The position numbers and the translations under genes were made by a program. Below, one piece after another: positions 11,021-59,569 of a DNA stretch of 64,000 nucleotides. Below the pieces are notes generated by a model, which was not told the origin of the DNA, did no database searches, and was given only the letters and a program-made list of their open reading frames with translations. This stretch comes from an uncultured archaeon. GTDB lineage: Archaea; Asgardarchaeota; Lokiarchaeia; Sigyniarchaeales; SOKP01. How positions within the stretch are numbered: the stretch's first letter is position 1; each line of letters begins with the position of its first letter. The stretch is taken from assembly GCA_964486045.1 (NCBI GenBank), contig CAZALK010000012.1:111206-175205 (forward strand). Direction: 5' to 3'.

Positions 11021-14000
11021 TCAATTAATTTTTTCTTCTTTTTTTCTTATCAAATAATAACCCAAAATTATCATCGTTATTATTATCGGTAATGCAAGTG
11101 CAACAGGATTGTTTCCGCTAATAAGGAAGAAATAATATGAGATTGCGACAATTGAGGAAAAGAAAGCAATTATACTACCGTATTGAACTGCAAAATTTCT
11201 CAAATTATGTCTAAGCATCTGCAATTTATAATTTGTACTCTTTATAACTTCTAATTCAGTCTCGTCCAATTCATCCAATATGTCAGGATTTTCAAAATAA
11301 ATATAGAATCGAGGGTCATATTTCCCTTTTAGCTTTCCGGTACTAATTAGGAATAATAAATGGTCTTGAATATTTTGTTTCTTAATCTTTAATTCATTAT
11401 TTAAGAAGCTAATTGTTAAAAATTCATTAGCTACAGCTTTTATGGTCATAGTGATATACTCTTGTAAAATTAATCGTTCCAATGATTTTACTTTTTCACT
11501 CAAAATCTCTGTGAATTCAATTAAAAATTTCTCAAAATCCTCTAATACAAATTTTGAAATTTGACGAAAGTTTTTTGATTGTCTTTTGTATTCCCTTACC
11601 ATCGTATTTGCTGCTTTGTTAATCTCTTTAATCTCAGATTCAATATTTTTTGCTCTCTTTTGAATTAAAATATTTATCTTTTTAAATTCCTTGATTTCAA
11701 TATTATCCTCTACCTTTCTCTCAAGATTTCCTAGTAGTAGGCTTAGTTTAATTTTATTACTGTTTATAAAATCTATTAACTTTCCACGAAAAGATTCATT
11801 TTTCATAGTTTCTATTTGATCATTAATTTTTTCAGCCTTCTTGTTGAATTCCTCCTGAAAATCATTTTTTTTCCTCACAAATATCTCTCTTATCTCTGGA
11901 ATCAATTTCCTGGAATCCCCAGATTTATTAGATATTTTCTTTATTTCATTTTCTACTTTTTCTTGTATTTGTCGTGATCTTTCCTTGAATTCCTGCCTTT
12001 TGTTTTCAAACAACTCTTGATTCTCTAAATAGGAGTCATTTTCTTCAGAATCTTTAACAAATCTATTGTAATATTCTTTTACTTCAATTTTCAGTGTATT
12101 GTATTGTTGATCTACAAAATTCTGCATCGAATTAAAAAGATCTAAAGAATGTTCTATAATATTTATGGCATTTTTGTCATTTTCTAAGATTGAATCAAAA
12201 TAAATTTTTGTACTGAGGAATTCTTTCCGTTCCTGATTTATTTGAAGTTCATTGATTTTATCATAGAATTTCTTTGGGATAATTTCATTAAAACCTTTTA
12301 AATCCTTAATTCTATTTTGAAGTTCTAACATATTTGTCTTTAAAGTCAAATTTCTAATACTTGAGTCATAGAGCGCAAGTATGTTCCCAACTCTTTCTCG
12401 GTTTGATTTTAATAAATGATTATCAACGTAGTTTCTTAAATCTTTATTTAAATAATAAAATTCGGTATGAATTAGAACTGATTTATCATTTTCATTCAAT
12501 TCAGCAGATACTTTAGAGATTCCTATCATATTTTTCAATCTTTTAATTAAAATCTTGCAAGAGAGTTTTAAATCATCTCTTAAATCGACAAGTTTAATAT
12601 TATTAGTTTTTTTCTCGATTGCCATTATATTTATTCTATTTGAAATAACAATATCAATAAACTCGTATTTTAACTCAGAAATTTCATTGATGAAAAAATC
12701 AGCGAATTTTTCCCATTGCAGGATAGTCATATTTGATTTTTCCTTAAAGTTTTCAATGCTTTTAGTGCAACTATTAAATTTCTTTAAAAATAATTTATTT
12801 GTTTTGTTAAAATTAGATTTAATTATATCAAATTCCTTACTTATCTGCTCAATTTGTAAATTTTTTGACTGATCAAATCTAGTTTTAATTTTTGATAATT
12901 CATTTTTTAATTTAAGCGCCTCCTGGGTCACGAAATTATCAAAGTCTTGTACTTTAGTTTTATTTCTCTCCTCTGTAACCTTATCCTTTAAAGATTGCGC
13001 TTGTTTGGCTATTGATTCAATAATCCTTGATTCTGAATTATCTAGATTGTCCTGCAGATGTTTAAATAATAAATAAAGTCCCTGTTTTTCATTGATCTCA
13101 TCTTTAACAACCGATTGGAGATTTTTAATCTCCTTTAGTTCAGCATTCAGTAAGATATCGGATTCTTTTCTAATGATTTCAAAAGCCTTTTGAAATTGAT
13201 TTGTTGAGATCTTACTCTTAGTATTTTCCCCAATCTTAGAAATCTCGTTATTTGATTTAACATTAAATACCTCTATTTTGTTTAAAATCTCTTTAAAAAA
13301 CTGGAATCCCTCATTATAAAATTTATACTCGTTTTCAAATTTCTCTTTAATCCTTACCCAATTTTCTATTATTTTCCTATGCTTATCAACAATTTCTACT
13401 TCTCTTGTTGTAATTTGTTGGGAGATATTATAGATAATTTTATCGTATTTGCTTATATCTTCGATAATTTGATTCAAATGTTGGATAATAAAAGAAAATT
13501 TATTACTATCATATTCTCTCTCAAGATTCTCACTGAAAATTTTCTTAAAAGAGTTTACCTTTTTGTCCAAGTCTTCTTCAATTAAGCCAAGTCTTTCCAT
13601 TAAATTTTCTAATAGTCTATTTAAATTTCTTATTTTCTCTTTCTCTTGTATTTTACCTTTAAGATTTGAATCAACCTCGACTAAATTATGATGTAAAACT
13701 GAATATCCTTTATTCCATTTAGCGATTTCAGTACTTAAAGTAGTTTTAATATTAATATAGTATAAATCTTCATTAAATGAATTTTCAATATTTTCATTCA
13801 AGAAATCAGCTTCCATTACAGCACTTCTTATTATAAATTTTAATCTTTCCTTTGCGTAATCAACTTCATTAATTAAGAGATAACTGTTAATTTCTTCTTT
13901 TATTTGTTTTCCTATATTCTTTAATTTTAAGTTAACATTATAGATATCATTCCTGATATCTTCTAATTTCTCTTTTTCCTCAAGAATCCTCTCCATGTTT

Positions 14001-15427
14001 ATTTCCGTGTCAGATAAAATAATTTTTTCTAAAATATATTTCAAATAAAAGTTATATTTTGTTTTCGCTAAGAATGGTTTTTTGGTTCTTATGTTCCCCT
14101 TAAAGAAATTCCTCGAAATTAAATCATTGATTGTCGGAATAATATCCTCTTTCAACTTTAAAGGCTCCATATTCTGAGTTTTAAATTTCTTAAACATCTC
14201 TGACAACGAAATTATACTTTTTTTCCTAATTTGATCATAAAATCTCTGAATAAATTCCTGTTTCCCACCTGCTAAATTCCGAATATAATTTCTAAATTCG
14301 ATTTTGTTATCTAATATTCTTAAATTAAAATTATAATTAAGATTAATATAGGAGATGAGATCTTCAATATCGTTAAATAATCCAAAAGTAGTTTTCAATT
14401 GATTTAAATCAATATATTTCTCTTTTTCCAGTTCCTTAAACACTAATCTTTCAATTTCGCCGATGAATTTCTTCCATATTAAAGATAAAAGAATAATTAA
14501 TTTAGAAACAGCAGCTAGGTGTAAAACATCCCACTTCTCAATATTGCTTAAAATCTCATTTAATTGAACATTAATAAACAAATATACCCCTGAAGGGTTG
14601 TAATCTAAAAGCCATGAATAAAGATCTAATACGTAAACTATCCAAAAAGTATCATTAAGATTTTCTGTTTGATTAAAACCATAACCGCCTGTTTCCATTT
14701 GATATTGGTGAAGGTTTTGAAATTCTTTTTCTTTTACTTCTAATTCTAAATCTATAGATTTTAAACAAAGAAACTTATAGACTAATGGGATGGTTTTTTT
14801 TTTGGTATCCCCAATTAATAAACGAAATTGATCCCGGTTATTACGAACATCTACACCCAGAAGCGTAAGGATCTCCATGACATAAAATAAAGTCCTTGCA
14901 GGGGAAATGCTTTTACAAACATCACACTCATTATCATGACAGTGTAAGAATACATTTCCTTTCTTATGTGAAAGAATAAAATTTTTAACATCTTCTTTAA
15001 TGTGACTCTGACCTTCTGAGGCAAAGAATTCTTTTAGAACTCCAAGATTTTTTAAACTGGCTAATGCTAGATAAGTGGAGTAAATATCGGCGTGTTTTTG
15101 AGGATCAAGTGACAGTTTAAATCCTAGCTTTTTATCTACCCTAATTTCGCATTTTTTAATGAAACTAAATAATCCATCTCGTTCTTTCTTCTTTTCTTCT
15201 TTCAAATATTTTCTAAGCAGTGAAAACCAGAATACATCTTCTAATGTTAAGCTATGCTCATCTAATAAATTCTTGTTAAAGTAATTGTAAAAAGTAATTA
15301 ATTTATTATAATCTCTTACGTAAAAACGCCCAATATCTTTTCGTTTAATAATGACAAATGATTTAAATGGCTCCTTTTTAAACTTGGTGATATATGGGTA
15401 AGCTGACTTCTTCTCAATGTTAATCAA
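11021..15427 (-). CDS. 1468-aa protein: prenyltransferase-like alpha-barrel, winged-helix/PCI-like segments, long coiled coil, two C-terminal TM helices
   Basis: GF...DIYSTYLALASLKNLG and GGYG...DTFW repeats; heptad-rich middle; LISTGKLKGKYD; hydrophobic C-terminus. Confidence 0.7.
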   Translation of the reverse strand: MINIEKKSAYPYITKFKKEPFKSFVIIKRKDIGRFYVRDYNKLITFYNYFNKNLLDEHSLTLEDVFWFSLLRKYLKEEKKKERDGLFSFIKKCEIRVDKKLGFKLSLDPQKHADIYSTYLALASLKNLGVLKEFFASEGQSHIKEDVKNFILSHKKGNVFLHCHDNECDVCKSISPARTLFYVMEILTLLGVDVRNNRDQFRLLIGDTKKKTIPLVYKFLCLKSIDLELEVKEKEFQNLHQYQMETGGYGFNQTENLNDTFWIVYVLDLYSWLLDYNPSGVYLFINVQLNEILSNIEKWDVLHLAAVSKLIILLSLIWKKFIGEIERLVFKELEKEKYIDLNQLKTTFGLFNDIEDLISYINLNYNFNLRILDNKIEFRNYIRNLAGGKQEFIQRFYDQIRKKSIISLSEMFKKFKTQNMEPLKLKEDIIPTINDLISRNFFKGNIRTKKPFLAKTKYNFYLKYILEKIILSDTEINMERILEEKEKLEDIRNDIYNVNLKLKNIGKQIKEEINSYLLINEVDYAKERLKFIIRSAVMEADFLNENIENSFNEDLYYINIKTTLSTEIAKWNKGYSVLHHNLVEVDSNLKGKIQEKEKIRNLNRLLENLMERLGLIEEDLDKKVNSFKKIFSENLEREYDSNKFSFIIQHLNQIIEDISKYDKIIYNISQQITTREVEIVDKHRKIIENWVRIKEKFENEYKFYNEGFQFFKEILNKIEVFNVKSNNEISKIGENTKSKISTNQFQKAFEIIRKESDILLNAELKEIKNLQSVVKDEINEKQGLYLLFKHLQDNLDNSESRIIESIAKQAQSLKDKVTEERNKTKVQDFDNFVTQEALKLKNELSKIKTRFDQSKNLQIEQISKEFDIIKSNFNKTNKLFLKKFNSCTKSIENFKEKSNMTILQWEKFADFFINEISELKYEFIDIVISNRINIMAIEKKTNNIKLVDLRDDLKLSCKILIKRLKNMIGISKVSAELNENDKSVLIHTEFYYLNKDLRNYVDNHLLKSNRERVGNILALYDSSIRNLTLKTNMLELQNRIKDLKGFNEIIPKKFYDKINELQINQERKEFLSTKIYFDSILENDKNAINIIEHSLDLFNSMQNFVDQQYNTLKIEVKEYYNRFVKDSEENDSYLENQELFENKRQEFKERSRQIQEKVENEIKKISNKSGDSRKLIPEIREIFVRKKNDFQEEFNKKAEKINDQIETMKNESFRGKLIDFINSNKIKLSLLLGNLERKVEDNIEIKEFKKINILIQKRAKNIESEIKEINKAANTMVREYKRQSKNFRQISKFVLEDFEKFLIEFTEILSEKVKSLERLILQEYITMTIKAVANEFLTISFLNNELKIKKQNIQDHLLFLISTGKLKGKYDPRFYIYFENPDILDELDETELEVIKSTNYKLQMLRHNLRNFAVQYGSIIAFFSSIVAISYYFFLISGNNPVALALPIIITMIILGYYLIRKKEEKIN

Positions 15428-26638: not shown

Positions 26639-27676
26639 ATGTTGAGACAAATATATTTTATCTTGGAGAATGAAATAATATATCATAGAAGTTATTCCAA
26701 AGGTATAGAATCATCCCTTTTAATAAATGTGTACCTGAACATTAAAAAAGATGCATTTGCAAAATTTGGAGAGGAAACGGGAACGTATGAATTTTTTGAT
26801 TCAAGAATTCTTTATACTGTTGATAAGGAACTCAATTTGTTAATTCTTTTTGTCCTAGGATTTTCTGATGAGATAGAGACGGCTAAACCTCATCTATTAA
26901 GAATTAAGAAAATTTTTTTAGAATCAAATATCCAAAATATAAGAGAAAATAATTTTTCTTCAAAAAATGTTGAGTTCAATTCTATTCTTGATGAAATACA
27001 AAGAAGCCTTAGGGCAAAAATATCTATAGTTGGGCTTTCCGGTGTCGGAAAGACTACGACGACGCAATTAATAAAAGCAGAAGAGATCCCGATAGAACAT
27101 GTTCCGACAATTACAGGAAAAGTTGCTACAATCAAACTTGAAGGAATAAATCTATCTATTTGGGATTTCGCAGGTCAAAATGAGTTTGATTATCTTTGGG
27201 AGAATTTTCTAGCTGGAACAGATGCTATTCTTTTAATGACTGAGTCTACCAGTGAAAATATTGAAAAAAGTAAGCGATTTATAGAAATATCAAATAAAGT
27301 TGCTCCATTTGCACGATTAGCTGTTATAGCTAATAAACAAGACTTACCTGGTGCAATGAAAGTAGAAGAAATTGAAAAGTTAATGGGAAGTAAAGTATAT
27401 GGATTTGTGGCTATTGCTCCAGATAGTCGAGATAAAATGATAAGAATTATCGCAGATCTCTTGGACATGAACCCCCAAGTATCGCCATTGTTGAAACCAA
27501 TATTTGAAAGAGATATTCTAATTAATAAAGGAAATAATGCCTTAGAACAGGGAAATCTCGAGGAAGCTGTAAATTTCTTCGATAGAGTAATTTCTAAATG
27601 CGTTGAGATTGGAGATGATTCTCAGGCTACAGAATTTAGATCTAAAGCCGACAAGTTAAGAATATTTCTAAAGTAG
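26639..27676 (+). CDS. Arf-like small GTPase with N-terminal longin-like domain and C-terminal helical hairpin
   Basis: GLSGVGKTT, PTITG, WDFAGQ, NKQD. Confidence 0.88.
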   Translation: MLRQIYFILENEIIYHRSYSKGIESSLLINVYLNIKKDAFAKFGEETGTYEFFDSRILYTVDKELNLLILFVLGFSDEIETAKPHLLRIKKIFLESNIQNIRENNFSSKNVEFNSILDEIQRSLRAKISIVGLSGVGKTTTTQLIKAEEIPIEHVPTITGKVATIKLEGINLSIWDFAGQNEFDYLWENFLAGTDAILLMTESTSENIEKSKRFIEISNKVAPFARLAVIANKQDLPGAMKVEEIEKLMGSKVYGFVAIAPDSRDKMIRIIADLLDMNPQVSPLLKPIFERDILINKGNNALEQGNLEEAVNFFDRVISKCVEIGDDSQATEFRSKADKLRIFLK

Positions 27677-27910: not shown

Positions 27911-28825
27911 ATGGCCACCAAAATTGTTATCATAGGAAAACCTGAAATGGGCAAAACAACCATAAAGAAGGTTATATTCGAGGGAGAAGACCCCAATGAG
28001 CTCATATTATTTCCACTGGAAGCTACTATCGGTATTAAGTATTCCATACATGAATTTATGAATTCTAAAGTTAGTTTAATTGACGCTCCTGGACAATCAT
28101 TACAGTTCATTTTAGAAGATGAACAGAAACAGTTGATAGTTTTTGGGGATAGTAGCGCGATTATTTATGTCTTTGATTATCCTACATGGATTTCAGACTC
28201 TCAAGATGTTATTGATGATATTAAAAAAATTTATGCAATCAAAAAGAAACATGAGTCTGATGCAAAAATTATTCTTTTTCTCCATAAAGTTGATCTCCTT
28301 ATTAAGAAAAAAATAGGAAGTATGCTTGCCCTGATAAAAAGACAAATAATTAAACAATTAGAGCTCCCTGAGGAAATTCCTATTTATTTTACAAGCTTAC
28401 ATCCTAATCTAATTTATACTACGTTTAATGCAATTTCTAATACAATTAGCATTTTCTCAAAAGATACATCAACTTTAAAAGAAATCATCAAAAAACTATT
28501 AAAAAACTTATCTAAGACTAGTTTCTTTGTATCAAATAATGATGATAATCTTGTTCTACAAGAAACAACGACCGACTTTGATAATAGTTTAATGTATTAT
28601 ATATATGAGAAAATTTATCAACAAGCGAAATCATCAGAGAAAATTACTTCAAGTACTAAACTGGTAAGTCTTGGCTCTAAGTTGTTAACTATGAGGATAG
28701 AAAACATAGGATCTTTTCATTCTAATTTTAATAATTTGATCATTTTCTCAGAAGTATTAGAGAAAGATGATATGGCTGGAATAATAGATGAATTAAAGAA
28801 GGAATTAAGTCAATATTTTAATTAA
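27911..28825 (+). CDS. Rag/Gtr-like small GTPase with C-terminal roadblock-like domain
   Basis: GKPEMGKTT, LEATIG, DAPGQ, YVFD, HKVD, FTSL. Confidence 0.82.
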   Translation: MATKIVIIGKPEMGKTTIKKVIFEGEDPNELILFPLEATIGIKYSIHEFMNSKVSLIDAPGQSLQFILEDEQKQLIVFGDSSAIIYVFDYPTWISDSQDVIDDIKKIYAIKKKHESDAKIILFLHKVDLLIKKKIGSMLALIKRQIIKQLELPEEIPIYFTSLHPNLIYTTFNAISNTISIFSKDTSTLKEIIKKLLKNLSKTSFFVSNNDDNLVLQETTTDFDNSLMYYIYEKIYQQAKSSEKITSSTKLVSLGSKLLTMRIENIGSFHSNFNNLIIFSEVLEKDDMAGIIDELKKELSQYFN

Positions 28826-28852: not shown

Positions 28853-29905
28853 ATGTTACGGCAAGTCTTTATAGTTGTAAATGACAAATTATCTTATCAG
28901 AGGAGTTATGCCAAGGGTTTAGAGATTTCTCTTTTTACAAGTGTGTTTCAAAAAGTCAAGAAAGTAGCACTTTCTAAATTTAGCAGTGAAACAGGATCAT
29001 ATGAATTTTTTGAATATAAGCTATCCTATGTAGTCGAAGACGAATTCAATCTCATTTTACTTTTTGTGTCAGGATTGGGTGATGATTTTAAAGACATAGA
29101 ACCCCAACTAAAGAAATTTAAAAAAGAATTTGTAGATTTTTATGGAGACACCTTGAAAACTGAGAATTTTGAAATAATAAATGAGGTTCTTGACCCGATT
29201 GTAGATAGTATTCACAGGAATTTAAAACCTAAAATCTCAATTATTGGCTTTTCTGGTGTTGGGAAGACAACGACAACTAAATTAATAAAATCAGAGGAAA
29301 TTCCTATGCAACACATTCCTACGATTACTGGTGAGGTAGCTACTATTAAAATCGGCAAATTAGTCTTTTTCTTATGGGATTTTGCAGGACAAGAACATTA
29401 TGATTTTCTGTGGGAGAAATTTATAAGAGGAAGCGATGCGGTACTTCTGATGACTGATTCAACCTTAGAAAATCTTGAGAAAAGCCGATTTTTTTTTGGG
29501 TTAGTTAATAAGGCAGTTCCATCGGCTCGTCTCGCAATAATAGCTAATAAACAAGATTTAACAGGAGCGATGAAGGTCGAAGAAATAGAACGATTAATGG
29601 GAAATAAAACCTATTCAATGGTAGCAATTGAACCGAATAATCGATCTAAAATGATCCGAATAATTGCAGATCTATTAGATATGGACACGGGAGTATCACC
29701 TTTATTGCAACCTATCTTTGAAAGAGACACATTAATGGATAAAGCTCAAAAAATATTAGAACAGGGGGATTTTGGTGAGGCTGTTGCAATATTTGAAAAA
29801 ATTAGTAATATCTGTCTTGATTTAGGAGATGACTCTTTAGCTCTTGAATTTCAAAATAAAAGCGAGAAAATTAGTAAAATGTTAAAGTCTTTAGGTAATA
29901 ATTGA
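28853..29905 (+). CDS. Arf-like small GTPase with N-terminal longin-like domain (paralog of 26639..27676)
   Basis: GFSGVGKTT, PTITG, WDFAGQ, NKQD. Confidence 0.88.
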   Translation: MLRQVFIVVNDKLSYQRSYAKGLEISLFTSVFQKVKKVALSKFSSETGSYEFFEYKLSYVVEDEFNLILLFVSGLGDDFKDIEPQLKKFKKEFVDFYGDTLKTENFEIINEVLDPIVDSIHRNLKPKISIIGFSGVGKTTTTKLIKSEEIPMQHIPTITGEVATIKIGKLVFFLWDFAGQEHYDFLWEKFIRGSDAVLLMTDSTLENLEKSRFFFGLVNKAVPSARLAIIANKQDLTGAMKVEEIERLMGNKTYSMVAIEPNNRSKMIRIIADLLDMDTGVSPLLQPIFERDTLMDKAQKILEQGDFGEAVAIFEKISNICLDLGDDSLALEFQNKSEKISKMLKSLGNN

Positions 29906-29943: not shown

Positions 29944-31605
29944 CTACCAAGTTCTTGTTAAATTTTGCATCAAAACCAAGACTTCCTTATTTCCAAGAGG
30001 AACAATATTAGATTGAAAAACAATTTGATTATTATTAACTGGTAAAATAAATTTCAGATTCTTAGAAGTTTTATCCTGAAGAGAGTTTTCTATCTTTTCC
30101 TGAACTAGTTCAGCAATTTCTTGTGGTAAAACTTCAGCTATATTTTTTCCTAGAAAATCATTTGTTGAAAATATTTGCTCTCCTATTTTTTCAATTTTCG
30201 TATCTAATTTAAAATCTAGCAAAACTCCAGTTTTTGAAATTCTAAAAATTGAAAATGGAACATGTTTAAAGAGAATACTATTTCTTAGTTCACTTTCATG
30301 CAATTTTTCCCTATTTTGCATTCTTTCTATAGCTGTACCTAGTTCTAATCCGATGGTAATGATAAGTTCCATTTCCTCCGGTAATAGTGGTTTATTGTTT
30401 TGAAAAATCATGTTTATAGAACCAATGATTTCAAATTTTGAAAATAATGGGATAACTGCTGTAGAAGAGAGATCCATCCCTTCAAAAAATTTATCTGATG
30501 ATTCAGGAAAATTATTATTGATGAGTGCTACACCCTTTATAAAGACGATATCGTAAGGATTTTTATTTATTTCTAATTCATGGTTTTCTATGAAAAAATG
30601 TGAAGGAAATCCCTTTTGAACCTTAATTCTTGCTACCTTCTCATGCTTATCAGTAAGAAAAATGGCGCATCCTTTAAGGTTAAATAAATCTATGAAGCTA
30701 TCAAGTATTTTAGATAATAATCCTGATAAATTATTAGCTTGGTTAGCTATACTTATGATTTTGTTTAAAATATCTGTTTTTTTTACTTGTTCTTTGAGTT
30801 TATCTTCGATAATGTGTATATCCGTTATATCATGAAAAAGATATTGAATAAAAAATTGATCTGCTAACTGGGTTTCATTAACAGTTACCTCTAAATACAT
30901 ATGAGTGCCTGTTGATTTTTTAATTCTCGAAATGATGGGGGGCGGTTGGTCAATCAGATGCTTAATCATGTTTGGATCCACTAATCCTTCATCAAATAAA
31001 TCAAACTGTAGAGCTTTAATTCCGATAATTTCTTCCCTTTTTTTTTCGATTAATTTTTCAGCTTCTAAATTCACATCAATAAGTATCCCTGAATCCCTAT
31101 TCATTATTAGAATTGCATCTCGTGCTGCCTTAAATAGAGCTTGATATCGATGCTCAGCCATAACTAAGGTTTTTACTGCCGGTTTAACGGATTCGAAGTA
31201 GGAATAAAAGAAACTTTTAATTTCATTTAATTTATTAATATCGGCTTTGAAGTCTTTTGGTTCATGATCAAATGCTTTATGAGCATCATCAATTTTAATG
31301 ATATATTGAGCAAATCCAGCGAGAAGTTCATTGGCAAGTATTAAAGTTAGGTTCACGCTTGACTCAGTTACCAACGAAAGTAAAAGACTCTCATATCCCC
31401 CTCTAGCAAAAGGACTCCTGAGTTTGAAAAACAAATTTGCTGTTTTAAATTCCCCAAATATATGCATATATACACCTTGGGTTGGAAGATCCATCAAAGT
31501 CGGAATTTTACTCAGGATTTCACCCTCTAATGACTTAGGTGCTTTTAAAACTATTGTGGGTCCGTATAATGGGTCAAAACGACTGAGAATTAATGCTGTT
31601 TCCAA
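29944..31605 (-). CDS. uDENN/longin-like N-terminal domain fused to PAS-GAF-PAS
   Basis: FDPLYGP and ARGG N-domain; PAS (RYQALF..A.D.I...DITD); GAF (VIPL....IIG); no kinase domain. Confidence 0.78.
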   Translation of the reverse strand: METALILSRFDPLYGPTIVLKAPKSLEGEILSKIPTLMDLPTQGVYMHIFGEFKTANLFFKLRSPFARGGYESLLLSLVTESSVNLTLILANELLAGFAQYIIKIDDAHKAFDHEPKDFKADINKLNEIKSFFYSYFESVKPAVKTLVMAEHRYQALFKAARDAILIMNRDSGILIDVNLEAEKLIEKKREEIIGIKALQFDLFDEGLVDPNMIKHLIDQPPPIISRIKKSTGTHMYLEVTVNETQLADQFFIQYLFHDITDIHIIEDKLKEQVKKTDILNKIISIANQANNLSGLLSKILDSFIDLFNLKGCAIFLTDKHEKVARIKVQKGFPSHFFIENHELEINKNPYDIVFIKGVALINNNFPESSDKFFEGMDLSSTAVIPLFSKFEIIGSINMIFQNNKPLLPEEMELIITIGLELGTAIERMQNREKLHESELRNSILFKHVPFSIFRISKTGVLLDFKLDTKIEKIGEQIFSTNDFLGKNIAEVLPQEIAELVQEKIENSLQDKTSKNLKFILPVNNNQIVFQSNIVPLGNKEVLVLMQNLTRTW

Positions 31606-32535: not shown

Positions 32536-33462
32536 CTATTTAAAATATTTATCTTTTAAACCGAGTTTTCTTAGAAAAATATTATACTTTCCTAATTTTC
32601 CCCCATAGTTACCAGCAGAGACTTTCAAGAGTCCATCCATATCAATAATCCCCTCAATTACTTTTGTCATTGATTTTTCAACTATTTTAATATCTAGGGC
32701 ATTAAAAATGATTTCTGGGATTGATTTGACACCCAAAGGAACTTTAAAATCTTCTGGGGGCAACCTATCCTTCAATGTTGGGCAATAGGGATGATTAGTT
32801 GACGGTCCAATTTCGGGGAAACTTGTTTCAGGTTTTGAGCCAGCTGAACAAACGTCAAAGGTCGTACAGACATCATCAATTTCAGCAAGTATCTTTACAG
32901 CTTCTCTCCCAACTTTTATTCCTGCATCCGTCGATTTGCAAAATAACCATAAATTACCTCCCATAACACCAGGGGCATAAGAGAGTTCTTCTTCAATTAA
33001 AAAATCATAACCCATCATTATTGGTACCGAAATTAGATTTCGGTCATATTTTGCAACAATCCATTCATAGCCATCTCCACAATGTCCTACATTTTCCATC
33101 ATTCTGAATTTTTTTTCAGTTGTTCCAGGATAGTGATCGAATACGGCAGTAGTGGGAACTACAAGGATACCCTGTCTCATTCTCCTTCCCAGTTGATTAT
33201 AGAATTTTGCTGTCGCCTTTTTCCCAGTGCCAGTCACCCATAATTGAACAACCGCTCCTAATCTACTATCAATGGTTTCATCTTTACTAAGCCATCTTAC
33301 AACTCCCCCTTCTGCATCCCCAAATACCGTTGAAGGAAGCGCTGTAAACGCATTTACGGCCCTGTTTAAGAATTCACCATCTTGAGCAGTCACCATTAAT
33401 TGAACACAGAGCCCCTCAAATGCCTCACAGTATGTATCATCAATTATTACCATTTTCAACAA
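32536..33462 (-). CDS. ftr: Formylmethanofuran:tetrahydromethanopterin N-formyltransferase
   Basis: IDDTYCEAF, PTTAVF, GVMGGN, GSK, STNHPYCPTL, SAGNYGGKLG. Confidence 0.92.
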   Translation of the reverse strand: MLKMVIIDDTYCEAFEGLCVQLMVTAQDGEFLNRAVNAFTALPSTVFGDAEGGVVRWLSKDETIDSRLGAVVQLWVTGTGKKATAKFYNQLGRRMRQGILVVPTTAVFDHYPGTTEKKFRMMENVGHCGDGYEWIVAKYDRNLISVPIMMGYDFLIEEELSYAPGVMGGNLWLFCKSTDAGIKVGREAVKILAEIDDVCTTFDVCSAGSKPETSFPEIGPSTNHPYCPTLKDRLPPEDFKVPLGVKSIPEIIFNALDIKIVEKSMTKVIEGIIDMDGLLKVSAGNYGGKLGKYNIFLRKLGLKDKYFK

Positions 33463-33588: not shown

Positions 33589-34512
33589 ATGCCCCGTGCA
33601 ATAATTCTATATGAAATTGATAAATCATTCGGCCCAAATATTTTAGCTGAGTATTATTTAAAACAGGATGATAAGATACCAGCCACAATATTGAAGGAAT
33701 TTTCCGAAAAGCATGTAAAAAAGGGTTACCCAGATGTATCTATTCGAAAAGATGAGGATCGTTTTTATTCAAGTATTATTAATACCGAATCTATTCAAAA
33801 AGAAAATCTCTATTTAAGTTTTATCTTACAAGAAGGAGAGGATCTCATCTCATTAAAGAGCATTTTTGAAAATATTGAAACTAAAGTTATTCAAGAATTT
33901 TCGACCGATAAGCAAAAGATGACCGAAATCCTCAAAAATGGTCTAAATTCAATATTAAATTTAATTCAAAAATTGCAAGAACCAAAAATTATAAAGGAAA
34001 TATTGAATGAAAGAACAAAAAAAATGCTTGATGATAGTTTGCTCCAAGAAGCTAGAGAATTGATTGATCTAGGTGAAGAAATCCCTGAAAAACTCGCTGA
34101 TGAGGTGAAAGTTGCTGAAGGATTATTGAAAAATAAAGAATATAGGAAAGCAAGAAAAAATTTTTTGAAAGCTTCAGAATTAGCAGTGCTTATTCAAGAG
34201 GAAGAAATTGCTTCATTCTTACAGAATAAAGCTGAACATGTTGGGACATTCCCCGACTTACTCAAAGAGCGTGATAATCTAAATAGAGAAATTCAGAAAA
34301 TAACAGGTGAATTAGAGGGTAACAAATTGTATTTATATGATCTACTTATTGATCCTATTCATAGATTAATCGAAATTTCAAACGATTTGGAAGAAGACGA
34401 AATATCTGGTGAGTTGATGAAATTTAAAAATAATGCACAAAGAGGTTCTCAGTTAGCAAAGGATTTAGAGGGCATAGATAATAAGATAAAAGAAATTTTG
34501 AATAAAATATAG
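33589..34512 (+). CDS. Longin/uDENN-like N-terminal domain plus helical region
   Basis: IILYEIDKSFGPNIL start; helical C-half. Confidence 0.6.
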   Translation: MPRAIILYEIDKSFGPNILAEYYLKQDDKIPATILKEFSEKHVKKGYPDVSIRKDEDRFYSSIINTESIQKENLYLSFILQEGEDLISLKSIFENIETKVIQEFSTDKQKMTEILKNGLNSILNLIQKLQEPKIIKEILNERTKKMLDDSLLQEARELIDLGEEIPEKLADEVKVAEGLLKNKEYRKARKNFLKASELAVLIQEEEIASFLQNKAEHVGTFPDLLKERDNLNREIQKITGELEGNKLYLYDLLIDPIHRLIEISNDLEEDEISGELMKFKNNAQRGSQLAKDLEGIDNKIKEILNKI

Positions 34513-34513
34513 A

Positions 34514-36334
34514 TTATTCTCCGAAATCTTTATCAATGGTAGTTTCTTCGATAACTGGTGGTACGTAATCCCCAATAGCACCAAATATAATTTTCGCTAT
34601 TTCCCACCCTTTTTCTGTTGGATATTTTAATGCGTTTTTTATTAATTCTTCCCCAACTTCATTATTCACTTCAACTTTATGAATATTTGCATTATTTTGC
34701 AAGATACTTTCAAATTTTGCTCCTTTACTGCCAATGGGTACAATCAATAAGGCTTCATCAATTGCCTTTTGTTCAATCGCATCTTTTAGACGTTTTGCTG
34801 CATAATATCCAGCGACTCCTGCACTTCTGTCAAAAGTTTTAATAGAAGGAATTTCCAAGCCCCATTTTTTACCTTCTGCTTCGATTAACGCTGCCAAAGT
34901 TTGAGCTCTTTTTCCAAGCATAAATTTAAACTCCATTTGAGTTTTAAATCGCTTTCCTTTTTCCTCACCAATCATATTAATACATTTTAATGTGGCACCA
35001 GCAATAGATTGGGGATTAACATCTATCGAATATTCTTCCTCGGCTAAAATATCTTCAATCGTCCTTTTAATAACTTCCCTGGGTTTTGAAAAATCGATCA
35101 CTTCTTCTTTGGTCAACGATTGAGGTCTCGCTGTACCAACAATTTCCGCTCCAACTTCTAAAAGTTCGTCAACCGTCATTTCTTCCATAACAACTTTGTC
35201 TATAAATCTTCGACAAAGTTTAATGGAGTTCCTTGGATTACCATTTGTTTTTTCAAAAATCAACTCAATTAATTTTTCATTCAATGGAAATAACGGATAT
35301 AAAGGAGGATTTAAATTATTATCATCCCAAAAGGTTTCCATTGATTTCGAAAAGAATATTTTAAGATCATTGAGACTAAATGGTTTCAATTCTTGTTCAG
35401 GTTCCATTCTCGAGCGTAGTGGTGCATCGGCTATCTCGATAATTCTCGGCCATATTTCTTTTAATACCGCAATGGTGATAACTAAGCCTTTTACTTCATT
35501 GTAGAGTCTCTTTAAAATCTCTAGAAATTTACGCTCAGCAACCTCGCCTAACATTCTATAGGGACTTTCTAATTCATCAAAATATAGAATAAGAACTGTG
35601 TCTAAATTCTCAGTGATAATTTTTATCAAACTTAGGCAAATATCATCTTCCTCTAGAATAGAATTAACGCCTAAATTGGATAGCTCCTCATCATCTAAGT
35701 CTTCGCCAAGAAGCCATCGTTCCGCAATTCCCTTCTTGTTCTTATCGAGTTGATATGTAACCAATGCCTTTACACAGTCTGCGAAAACGCCTGGAAACTC
35801 CCTAACTCCCCTTTGAAGCACTTCCTCAATTTTAGGTTTTTGGAATAGCCCCTTTTTTTCTCCACCCCATTTTTTCACTAATCGTTCAGAAACAATATCA
35901 AGTAATTCAGCACCCATTTCTTCAATTATACAAGTATAAACATGAAGCAATACACGTATACTTGCTGGAGGGCTAGGAATATAGATAATAGACCAATTAA
36001 AATCTTCTAATTTTCCTACTTCAATCTCTTGAACATCTTTAGCTTGCTCTAATTTTTTCAAATTCTCTCGTTCTTTATCTTTAAAAGAATGATATGCATG
36101 AGTTTTCCCTGTTCCTGCTGATCCCAGAATTGGAATTAAGCGCGATGATTTATCTCTAGCAGTTTGACGAACTAAACGATAAACCTCTCGGTCAATAAAA
36201 GCTCGTGGTCTTGCCACGTCAATCTTATCAGGCAGATGCCCGCGTGACACGAAGTTTGAGAAGGGCAGTATCGGGGTTTCACGGAGCACATCGAGGTACA
36301 TATTTCGGTCATCTTCATTAAGCTCACTATACAT
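34514..36334 (-). CDS. P-loop (AAA+-like) ATPase with uncharacterised C-terminal domain
   Basis: GSAGTGKT, ILYFDELE, GNPR. Confidence 0.8.
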   Translation of the reverse strand: MYSELNEDDRNMYLDVLRETPILPFSNFVSRGHLPDKIDVARPRAFIDREVYRLVRQTARDKSSRLIPILGSAGTGKTHAYHSFKDKERENLKKLEQAKDVQEIEVGKLEDFNWSIIYIPSPPASIRVLLHVYTCIIEEMGAELLDIVSERLVKKWGGEKKGLFQKPKIEEVLQRGVREFPGVFADCVKALVTYQLDKNKKGIAERWLLGEDLDDEELSNLGVNSILEEDDICLSLIKIITENLDTVLILYFDELESPYRMLGEVAERKFLEILKRLYNEVKGLVITIAVLKEIWPRIIEIADAPLRSRMEPEQELKPFSLNDLKIFFSKSMETFWDDNNLNPPLYPLFPLNEKLIELIFEKTNGNPRNSIKLCRRFIDKVVMEEMTVDELLEVGAEIVGTARPQSLTKEEVIDFSKPREVIKRTIEDILAEEEYSIDVNPQSIAGATLKCINMIGEEKGKRFKTQMEFKFMLGKRAQTLAALIEAEGKKWGLEIPSIKTFDRSAGVAGYYAAKRLKDAIEQKAIDEALLIVPIGSKGAKFESILQNNANIHKVEVNNEVGEELIKNALKYPTEKGWEIAKIIFGAIGDYVPPVIEETTIDKDFGE

Positions 36335-38398: not shown

Positions 38399-39349
38399 TT
38401 AATTTTTTTGTCTTACAATAATGATTATTGAGATGACTATTATAAATGTACCAATTAAATGGAATATTGAAAATAATTCTCCAAGAAGAATAAAGGAGAA
38501 AAAAGCTGTGACAATTGGGGTTAACGAAAGAATAACACTCGCTTTCCCTATTTCGAGATATGTGAGGCTTTTATACCAAAGAAATAGGCTAAAACCGTAG
38601 TCTACTCCCATCAATAGAAAATAAATGAAATATTGAGGATCTATTACAATTAATATATTTTTCAGTGGAAAGAATAGAAAGTAAGTAAAGAAGAGAATTA
38701 ATCCGCTAATTAAATTCCTCATAAAAACAACTTGGGTTGGAAACAAATCGTTTCGATCAAAGTTTGATTTTGTAAGTGTATGAACAAGGGTAAATATGAC
38801 AACACTAATGAGTAAAATAGCAACCCCTATATTTATAGTAAGGGTGTCAAAAGAAGCTTGAGTTACTGATATAATCAACCCAACAAATAGCAGAAAACAA
38901 AAAAGAATCTGAATTCCGGATATTTTTTCTTTAAGAAGTAAGAATCCAAAAATTAGCGCAAATATTATTTCACTCTTAAAAATTAAAGAACTATTAATTG
39001 CTCCCGCGATTTCAAATCCAATATAGTTAAGAACAGGAACAATACTAAAAGTTAATCCAATAAAGAGAAGAAATTTGATATTTTTACTTTCTTTCCATCC
39101 ATTTAATAATGATCGAATCTTTATTTGTTGACTCTGCCCTTTCTCCATTGTTAAACTATTCTTTAGTCTTCTTCTTTCTAAAATATAAAGTGGTAAGAAA
39201 ATTAATGCTTCTATTAAGGCCGTAATCGCAGCAAATAAGTAAGGGTCAATAATTTTAGGTCTGGAATTTGCAATAACTGGTTGGAGACCTATTGTGAAGA
39301 TTGCGATTATACCAAAAAGAAGCCCTTTTTTTAGGTTCTCATTTTCCAC
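38399..39349 (-). CDS. EamA/DMT family transporter
   Basis: About 10 TM helices in two EamA repeats. Confidence 0.88.
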   Translation of the reverse strand: MENENLKKGLLFGIIAIFTIGLQPVIANSRPKIIDPYLFAAITALIEALIFLPLYILERRRLKNSLTMEKGQSQQIKIRSLLNGWKESKNIKFLLFIGLTFSIVPVLNYIGFEIAGAINSSLIFKSEIIFALIFGFLLLKEKISGIQILFCFLLFVGLIISVTQASFDTLTINIGVAILLISVVIFTLVHTLTKSNFDRNDLFPTQVVFMRNLISGLILFFTYFLFFPLKNILIVIDPQYFIYFLLMGVDYGFSLFLWYKSLTYLEIGKASVILSLTPIVTAFFSFILLGELFSIFHLIGTFIIVISIIIIVRQKN

Positions 39350-58622: not shown

Positions 58623-59500
58623 CTACACTTGAGACGATAAGTCTTTCGGGATTATTTTTTGTTTAACAATCATAATTATTGATATGATCACTAGGAATGT
58701 ACCTAATAGATGGAACAATGTAAATGCTTCGCTAAGTATAAAACTTGCAAACAAAGAATTAACAATTGGAGTCGGTGATAAAATTATAGTTGCTTTGGAT
58801 ACATCTAGATATGAGAGAGTTTTATACCAGCAAAATAATCCTGTCCCGTAAACAACACCCATAGCTATAAAGAAAAAGACATTAAGAGGATTGCTGAATA
58901 AGATTAGCTTATCAACAGGAAAAATAACAAAATAAGTAAAAATTAATAAAAATCCTGAAATAATATTCCTAACAAATACCATTTGTGTTGGAGTCATTTC
59001 ATTTCGAACAAAGTTGTAAAAGATCCTTGAGCTATAGCTAAAAATAAGCCAAAAAATAAGACAATAGAGAAGATAATTTGTACTTTTGTAATTCGCTCTC
59101 TTAAAATCAAAACTCCGAATATCAACCCAAAAAAAACTGAAGTCTTTTGTGTTAATGAACCATTAATAGCTCCAGCTAAATTATAACCTATAAAGAATAA
59201 AAGTTGATTAAGACCAAAAATAATCCCGATTATTATAAGTAACCACGCATTTTTTTTCCAATTTTGCCATACTGTACTTTGAGAAACGGTCTGATTTAAA
59301 TCATTAGTATTTGGATGATTTTTCTTTATCTCCATTATCGTCAAGGGAAAAAACATAATAACCTCAACCAAACAAGTCATAGCTGCGAAGATAAATGCAT
59401 CAAGAGATTGTGGTCGTGCATTAGCTACGATGGGTTGGAAACCTACTATAAATACACCCAGTCCTCCGAATAGAAGTCCTTTCTTAGTCCTAACATCCAC
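58623..59500 (-). pseudogene. EamA/DMT transporter broken by an internal deletion and frameshift near 59000-59025
   Basis: ORFs 58994..59518 and 58623..58997 match the two halves of paralog 38399..39349, with about one TM helix missing. Confidence 0.75.
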
Positions 59501-59569
59501 GATATATAATAGAAACATGAAGAATTTAAAAATTTTAGAATTTTAAAACGATGAATTATTACCTTTATT

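Follow-up and report, generated by a model that had tools for sequence, protein, structure and literature searches.

A kinase-less longin-PAS-GAF-PAS protein genomically coupled to Arf-like and Rag-like GTPases in a Lokiarchaeial archaeon: a candidate sensor-gated GAP

Can a single archaeal protein couple the sensing of small molecules to the switching of eukaryote-like small GTPases? The question is raised by a gene in the 64,000-nucleotide stretch of DNA analysed here (the window), whose product joins an N-terminal longin domain to prokaryotic sensor domains and which lies opposite GTPase genes (Table 1). The initial annotation had read it as a sensor-coupled GAP with folliculin and SMCR8 affinities. 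Since the named homologues of the protein belong mostly to Promethearchaeota/Lokiarchaeota, including Lokiarchaeum GC14_75, the host is a Lokiarchaeial Asgard archaeon. We propose that the protein is a sensor-gated longin GAP for one or more of the neighbouring GTPases, a reading which we prefer while giving it somewhat less than an even chance.

Table 1. Positions in the window of the sensor gene, its domains and motifs, and the GTPase genes opposite it.
Feature	Position	Strand	Basis
Longin-PAS-GAF-PAS protein gene, 553 aa, without kinase domain	29944..31605	(-)	ORF, Pfam, full-length model
Predicted NPRL2-like (GAP-class) longin domain, residues 1-145	31171..31605	(-)	AlphaFold2, Foldseek, VIA-align
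F10-D11...G15-P16 motif	31558..31578	(-)	Invariant in 48 orthologues; C9orf72 spacing per PMC12290439
Arg68, candidate arginine finger, β4-β5 loop	31402..31404	(-)	Orthologue alignment, 170 homologues, AlphaFold2 model
PAS domain 1 (153-262)	30820..31149	(-)	Pfam and full-length model
GAF domain (292-428)	30322..30732	(-)	Pfam
PAS-like domain 2 (about 441-550), ending in conserved NxTRxW	29956..30285	(-)	Pfam, orthologue alignment, model
Arf-like GTPase, N-terminal longin-like region and helical tail	28853..29905	(+)	Pfam Arf E 3e-18; fixed convergent neighbour
Rag/Gtr1-like GTPase (DxPGQ, HKxD)	27911..28825	(+)	Gtr1/RagA E 8e-23; in co-lost trio
Second Arf-like paralogue	26639..27676	(+)	Arf E 1e-20; 54% identical to 28853

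The sensor gene starts with a TTG codon, the starts of its homologues coincide with it, and 63 of 131 have exactly the same length. A homologue search returned 119 matches, nearly all of 552-555 aa and without a kinase domain, and some 130 orthologues of equal length invariantly carry FD..xGP and ARG near the N-terminus and end in the same conserved C-terminal motif. This constancy of length and of the C-terminus rules out the reading of the gene as a truncated kinase or a pseudogene. Pfam recognised the first PAS domain (E 6e-7), the GAF domain (3e-8) and, weakly, a second PAS at 481-550 (0.007), and a third PAS-like fold at 451-548 is supported by the full-length model. Neither HisKA nor HATPase was matched by Pfam in the protein, which the initial annotation had described as having no kinase output, and residues 1-150 were without any match. 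Residues 150-553 consist of PAS-GAF-PAS, with no DENN core on the C-terminal side of the longin, and orthology with folliculin, SMCR8 or Avl9 is therefore excluded. In the full-length model, the longin passes into the first PAS domain through one continuous predicted helix (residues 123-162, with pLDDT under 50 at 147-161), and further helices connect the sensor domains with each other. Long helices joining domains are the usual build of parallel PAS/GAF dimers. A sigma-70 promoter scan gave results at chance level, and the sigma-70 model does not apply to archaea.

The N-domain has a longin fold in its AlphaFold2 model (pLDDT 87), the topology β-β-α-β-β-β-α-α being the longin order. The six top solved matches in Foldseek (E 1.9e-5 to 5.5e-4) are GATOR1/SEA chains, including NPRL2 (7t3b_B); chains of the folliculin complex come after them, and DENND1B follows at 0.05. 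VIA-align gave Z 11.5 against a Lokiarchaeial longin and Z 11.1 against NPRL2 (8fw5_B; rmsd 3.4, 130 aligned), while generic longins also score Z 9-10, so that VIA-align alone proves the fold and not the class. Comparison with the Atlas gave TM values of 0.70 for NPR2 and 0.69 for Heimdallarchaeial folliculin-like clusters; ESM Atlas feature matches were all under 0.9 and were taken as leads only. The modelled structure thus supports the assignment of the domain to the GAP-class longins. The fold foreseen by the initial annotation is borne out by all four of these approaches, but the closest solved structure is NPRL2 rather than folliculin or SMCR8. At the sequence level, searches with the longin alignment and its profile gave no link to eukaryotic longin GAPs; the sole reach of wider longin profiles into these was a weak one, to NPRL2 residues 9-40 (E 0.7-1.3), and the Pfam Folliculin family was matched by 3 of 104 family members, with a best E of 0.003.

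Two motifs of the N-domain, which the initial annotation had located correctly, carry the argument for a GAP. F10, D11, G15, P16, A67, R68 and G69 are invariant in 48 sensor orthologues, Arg68 being encoded by aga (31404-31402). Its loop reads LRSPFARGG in this protein and QPNKFARGG in many orthologues. The expected conservation of Arg68 extends far beyond background: the column holds Arg in 156 of 170 unselected distant homologues (down to about 25% identity), a figure that leaves uncounted the invariance in alignments A4-A6, which were picked from Arg-bearing rows. The combination of F[DNH]x3-4GP with [AS]RG is found in 4 of 4427 genomic ORFs, each of them a member of the family, where 0.16 would be expected; the co-occurrence is not due to chance. 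In the AlphaFold2 model, the GP pair opens β2 (15-22) and Arg68 sits between β4 (53-63) and β5 (71-81). The same position of an arginine defines the Avl9-type DENN/longin GAPs (10.64898/2026.01.05.697756), and PMC12290439 reports the GP motif as specific to GAP-class longins and gives, for C9orf72, W33-D34...G38-P39, whose spacing equals that found here. The GP pair also aligns with that of NPRL2, weakly (E 0.67). Profile alignments fall short of the Arg68 loop, and the likely equivalence of Arg68 to the fingers of eukaryotic longin GAPs therefore rests on the position of the loop in the model. The more specific likeness to the folliculin motif L.D..ARGF did not hold, as only ARG is present, with no Asp and with Gly in place of Phe. 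None of the sequence-level findings which the initial annotation had named as weighing against its idea, such as an N-domain unlike a longin or a variable Arg68, was encountered.

The sensor gene converges with three GTPase genes, as had been described, with 38 nt between its stop codon and that of the nearer Arf-like gene (28853-29905); the Rag-like gene ends 27 nt upstream of the latter. All three are present, but the outer Arf gene (26639) is found at its position in just a few genomes and is an accessory, dispensable paralogue outside the fixed module. The nearer Arf-like protein has intact G1, G3 Gln and G4 motifs. Its residues 1-120 probably form a longin, to judge from their sequence pattern and the literature, and this region is devoid of the GP/RG motif. 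The G3 Gln, which is used by Arg-finger catalysis, is retained by both the Arf-like and the Rag-like neighbour. A co-fold of the sensor longin with residues 1-280 of the Arf-like neighbour, GTP and Mg scored 0.02 (mark 0.32), which the tool reads as no evidence either way.

An Arf orthologue is the convergent neighbour of the sensor gene in 20 of 20 genus loci. The same block keeps the genes for a transglutaminase-like protein, an AAA ATPase and an Hsp20-like protein across the genus, and plain synteny was dropped as evidence of linkage since the entire block is conserved. The argument draws instead on the pattern of loss and on distant loci. The sensor orthologue is absent from 10 of 36 genus genomes (79-99% complete), and all ten are also without the Arf and Rag orthologues (classes of 68-82% and 61-73% identity, respectively), a joint loss to be read with the limits that convergent genes do not form a single operon and that adjacent genes can go in one deletion. 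Six of the ten retain a marker gene from the block, and four genomes (G011, G012, G015 and G033) have preserved both flanks while missing precisely the sensor, Arf and Rag genes. On a tree of two block genes, the losses of the trio fall into three lineages or more: G012/G030/G033 (bootstrap 100), G011 within a module-bearing clade (100) and G015 beside G020 (88). The FTR gene of the block has been lost singly in several module-bearing genomes, and single-gene loss therefore does occur there. Two loci are decay intermediates of the cassette: in G014, the deletion cuts within the sensor gene, leaving a stub of 99 aa (L077:7255-7551) and neither GTPase, and in G023 the sensor is intact, the Arf gene broken and the Rag gene absent (L043:8654-9535).

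Loci from outside the genus extend this picture. In a sister clade, two proteins (P0123 and P0125) have a longin 44-48% identical to that of the sensor protein, followed by PAS-only arrays with neither GAF nor kinase. Their outer neighbours differ, yet their genes converge on GTPases whose best matches in the host genome are the window Arf, at 52-53% identity, and the window Rag, at 46% or, in the case of a fragment, 35%. Among five Rag orthologue loci of other genera, two have the sensor (G120, G087), two lie at a contig edge and one (G123) is without the sensor, being a more distant Rag-Arf-Rag set. The Arf/Rag pair is not adjacent to five kinase-bearing relatives or to P0128, where the contigs show it; another relative (P0122/L094) was uninformative, its contig being of 1.5 kb. 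A GTPase gene lies within three genes of 5 of the 8 family genes of this genome, against a background of 10.4% (binomial p about 5e-4), with the caveat that signalling genes cluster and that 2 of 7 PAS/GAF genes are likewise near a GTPase gene. The linkage of the sensor gene to its Arf-like and Rag-like neighbours beyond block synteny is thus supported and survives these controls, with G023 and G123 as exceptions.

Fusions give a third, Rosetta-stone line of evidence for the coupling, as an Arf-like GTPase is fused to 70 of the 170 homologous longins. For one such GTPase, the closest structure found was PDB 8OUN/8OUM, the Asgard ArfR structures. Thirty-two of the fusions are of the form longin-Arf-longin, most of them running on into PAS arrays, and their second longin bears W[D/N]..xG in 28 and RG in 27 of the 32. 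The second longin and PAS of these chains are colinear with residues 2-271 of the sensor protein (30% over 291 aa), the fused longin being 39% identical to the sensor longin. A longin-Arf-longin-PAS chain would equal the combined products of a longin-Arf and a longin-sensor gene, and genes of these two kinds lie opposite each other in the window. The subfamilies differ, however: against a profile of the fused GTPases, the two Arf genes of the window rank only 37th and 39th, the fused GTPases being of another Arf subfamily. The longin tree, which bears on an origin of the sensor protein from such fusions by loss of the GTPase, has few supported forks. The idea that the Arg finger and an intact GTPase covary in the fusions was considered and rejected on the counts (both intact in 32, finger only in 19, GTPase only in 5, neither in 10, the last mostly one clade); with the finger uncoupled from an intact GTPase, the Arg may have a structural role or serve a GTPase in trans.

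Several single proteins of the family were observed in passing. The chain longin(FD..GP/ARG)-ArfR-longin(WD..xG/RG)-PAS-(GAF)-HATPase is found in L051:3233-6106, L052:7873-10707, L058:7742-11113, P0134, P0136 and P0150; single-chain longin-ArfR-longin-PAS proteins of this kind echo SMCR8:ARF1:C9orf72, with a C9orf72-like WD in the second longin (28/32). A clade of 1116-1130 aa (L053-L060) has lost the G3 Gln (DIPGK) and the GP and ARG of the first longin and has kept the RG of the second. The host has a longin-Arf-longin-sensor fusion (G000:C6:93430-94188 and C6:94246-98373) split by a TAA within the GTPase domain, either a pseudogene or an assembly error, with another small GTPase gene directly upstream; its intact homologue, P0196, is one chain of 1772 aa. 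Five longin-Arf fusions (L047:2642-3619, P0165, P0178, P0182 and G000:C17:37984-39021) have an intact ARG beside a degenerate, probably inactive GTPase and, on their sequences, are possible GAPs in trans. Finally, a kinase-bearing longin-PAS4-HATPase gene (P0139, locus L093) adjoins an FTR gene that shares 76% identity with the one at 32536-33462 of the window, and thus lies near the same block position.

We hypothesise that the protein is a cytoplasmic one-component regulator, in which a GAP-class longin would insert Arg68 into the active site of a small GTPase encoded beside it. The most likely target is the nearer Arf-like protein (28853), and the Rag-like protein is a possible one. Gating of this activity would fall to the PAS-GAF-PAS rod, which would dimerise the protein and, presumably upon binding a ligand, shift the helix between the longin and the first PAS domain. 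The bowl that binds the GTPase would be formed by a pair of longins. In SMCR8, Arg147 serves as the finger for ARF1 within a bowl formed by two longins (10.1101/2021.04.13.439632), and a homodimer of the sensor protein, each longin of which bears both the FD..GP patch and the Arg, could build a two-longin bowl like that of C9orf72-SMCR8. Alternatively, the partner in a heterodimer could be the motif-less longin of the Arf neighbour. The modelled fold, the motifs and their conservation, the lack of a kinase and the genomic coupling to the two GTPases stand as observations, and the GAP chemistry, the target, the dimer, the binding of a ligand and the direction of the signal are inferred from them. 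A bolder version, which we hold to be distinctly more doubtful, would take the protein for a single-chain longin GAP under ligand control, which turns off the gene-linked Rag-like and/or Arf-like GTPase, and see in it a minimal archaeal forerunner of GATOR1/folliculin nutrient-sensing logic, with one self-dimerising longin in the roles of both SMCR8 (Arg) and C9orf72 (W/F-D) and with interchangeable PAS/GAF inputs. Biochemistry on an Asgard longin GAP was not found in the literature surveyed.

The signal could also run in the opposite direction, the longin being an input or effector that reads the GTP state and the PAS-GAF-PAS part relaying it to histidine kinases or PAS proteins, so that the protein would be a kinase-less adaptor or decoy. 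Such a role is unlikely in our estimation, but it has support in the close kinase-bearing paralogues, where the longin lies N-terminal to PAS(n)-HisKA-HATPase(-REC), the usual position of an input; in the termination of the sensor protein exactly where its last PAS ends; and in the several PAS kinases of the genome. It is opposed by the swapping of the sensor payload among relatives that keep the longin and the GTPases, as expected of variable inputs, and by the genus loci, where the trio has no linked kinase gene. A constitutive GAP subunit, with PAS and GAF as a kinase-derived dimerisation or spacer scaffold devoid of sensing, is decidedly improbable. It would agree with the conservation of the first PAS domain, which matches that of the longin (0.81 against 0.79) as for a structural part, and with the sensor domains themselves, in which the LOV cysteine motif NCR occurs in 0 of 48 orthologues and no other clear cofactor motif was seen, but some 130 orthologues keep all three domains at constant length, with 15 invariant residues in the GAF and 9 in the second PAS domain.

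Two other readings retain the longin as a GTPase-binding module and depart from its proposed use on the neighbours. The protein might act as a GAP for another of the roughly 90 GTPases of the host genome, for example a DxPGQ-type ArfR of the fusions, with the neighbours linked only physically. The distance of the window Arfs from the fused subfamily, the high synteny of the whole block within the genus and the broken linkage in G023 and G123 would all fit; the repeated joint loss, and the fact that relatives at 44-53% identity have kept this GTPase pair amid different outer neighbours, make this reading improbable, though not as much so as a constitutive GAP. The least probable of the alternatives in our view is a non-catalytic GTPase platform or an exchange factor, in the manner in which DENN, Mon1-Ccz1 and TRAPP-like proteins use longins, with a structural ARG. 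Many longins are indeed platforms of exchange factors and their folds reach Z 9-10 as well, and the Arg persists beside degenerate GTPases. Against this, the GP motif together with an Arg between β4 and β5 has been published as the mark of GAP-class longins and is reportedly missing from those of adaptin, TRAPP and DENND (PMC12290439; 10.64898/2026.01.05.697756), and the Foldseek scores set NPRL2 (E 1e-5 to 5e-4) apart from DENND1B (0.05). The sensor-gated longin GAP is accordingly the reading that we retain.

The idea of such a regulator is less new than the initial annotation implied, as both of its halves are published, and the sensor protein belongs to a published class, the NPRL2-like longin fusions and the GP/Arg Asgard longins. 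Liu et al. (bioRxiv 10.1101/2020.10.19.343400) describe many Asgard fusions of NPRL2-like longins with two-component domains and interpret the longin as the sensory part that feeds into two-component systems. The present protein likewise combines an NPRL2-like longin with prokaryotic signalling domains in an Asgard archaeon; it differs from the fusions described in their text by having neither a kinase nor a receiver domain and by its fixed Arf and Rag gene pair. The Traffic 2025 article (PMC12290439) concerns GP and the Arg finger in Asgard longins, with the same two motifs and the same fold as here, and proposes, or asks about, a GAP action on ArfR or Rag; the sections considered here deal chiefly with Heimdallarchaeial FLCN/SMCR8-type proteins, without mention of a sensor fusion or a partner GTPase. 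In the literature surveyed, we found no member that lacks a kinase and has a fixed pair of GTPases, nor evidence from loss and payload swapping.

Compared with NPRL2 of GATOR1 (PDB 7T3B, 8FW5, 9V0J), FLCN-FNIP2 (6NZD, 8DHB) and C9orf72-SMCR8, the protein shares the longin fold, F/W-D-x3-GP and the loop arginine, and these complexes act on Rag and Arf GTPases, both of which families are represented beside the sensor gene. Unlike them, it has no DENN or NPRL2 C-terminal domain, its identity to them is 12-17%, no dedicated partner subunit was identified, and its regulation is apparently built in through PAS-GAF-PAS. With Avl9/DENND6, monomeric DENN GAPs for Arf-family GTPases (10.64898/2026.01.05.697756), it has in common a single-chain longin and an Arg finger between β4 and β5, with sensor domains in place of the DENN core. 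The Lokiarchaeial longin-ArfR-longin-PAS(-HATPase) fusions share a homologous longin and a colinear longin-PAS1 unit, but carry their GTPase, of another Arf subfamily, on the same chain, whereas that of the window is a separate gene. A Foldseek survey for Asgard equivalents of C9orf72 and SMCR8 returned two candidates, both without Arf-binding regions, and the regulators of Asgard Arf GTPases are still to be established (PMC11914678); matching GTPases to their GAPs or GEFs from genome layout is hard (PMC10933270). The three-gene cassette offers a candidate GAP with a candidate catalytic residue, and two possible substrates for it; its proteins are all soluble and moderately sized, and the question of ArfR or Rag is therefore testable in one assay. 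It makes a published open question directly testable without answering it. If the proposal is true, the off-switch chemistry of Rag and Arf, and its coupling to environmental sensing, would predate the origin of eukaryotes.

Three other genes of the window merit mention. A genus-conserved protein of 307 aa (33589-34512) starts with an FGP motif resembling the β1-β2 loop of longins, obtained no score with the GAP-longin profile, and is encoded tail-to-tail with an AAA/STAND-like ATPase gene (34514-36334). An ORF of 1468 aa (11021-15427) has only a weak N-terminal match to a prenyltransferase-like toroid (E 2e-4). Two adjoining ORFs (58623-59518) jointly match the intact 316-aa ORF 38399-39349 (42-53%) and are probably a split paralogue of it.
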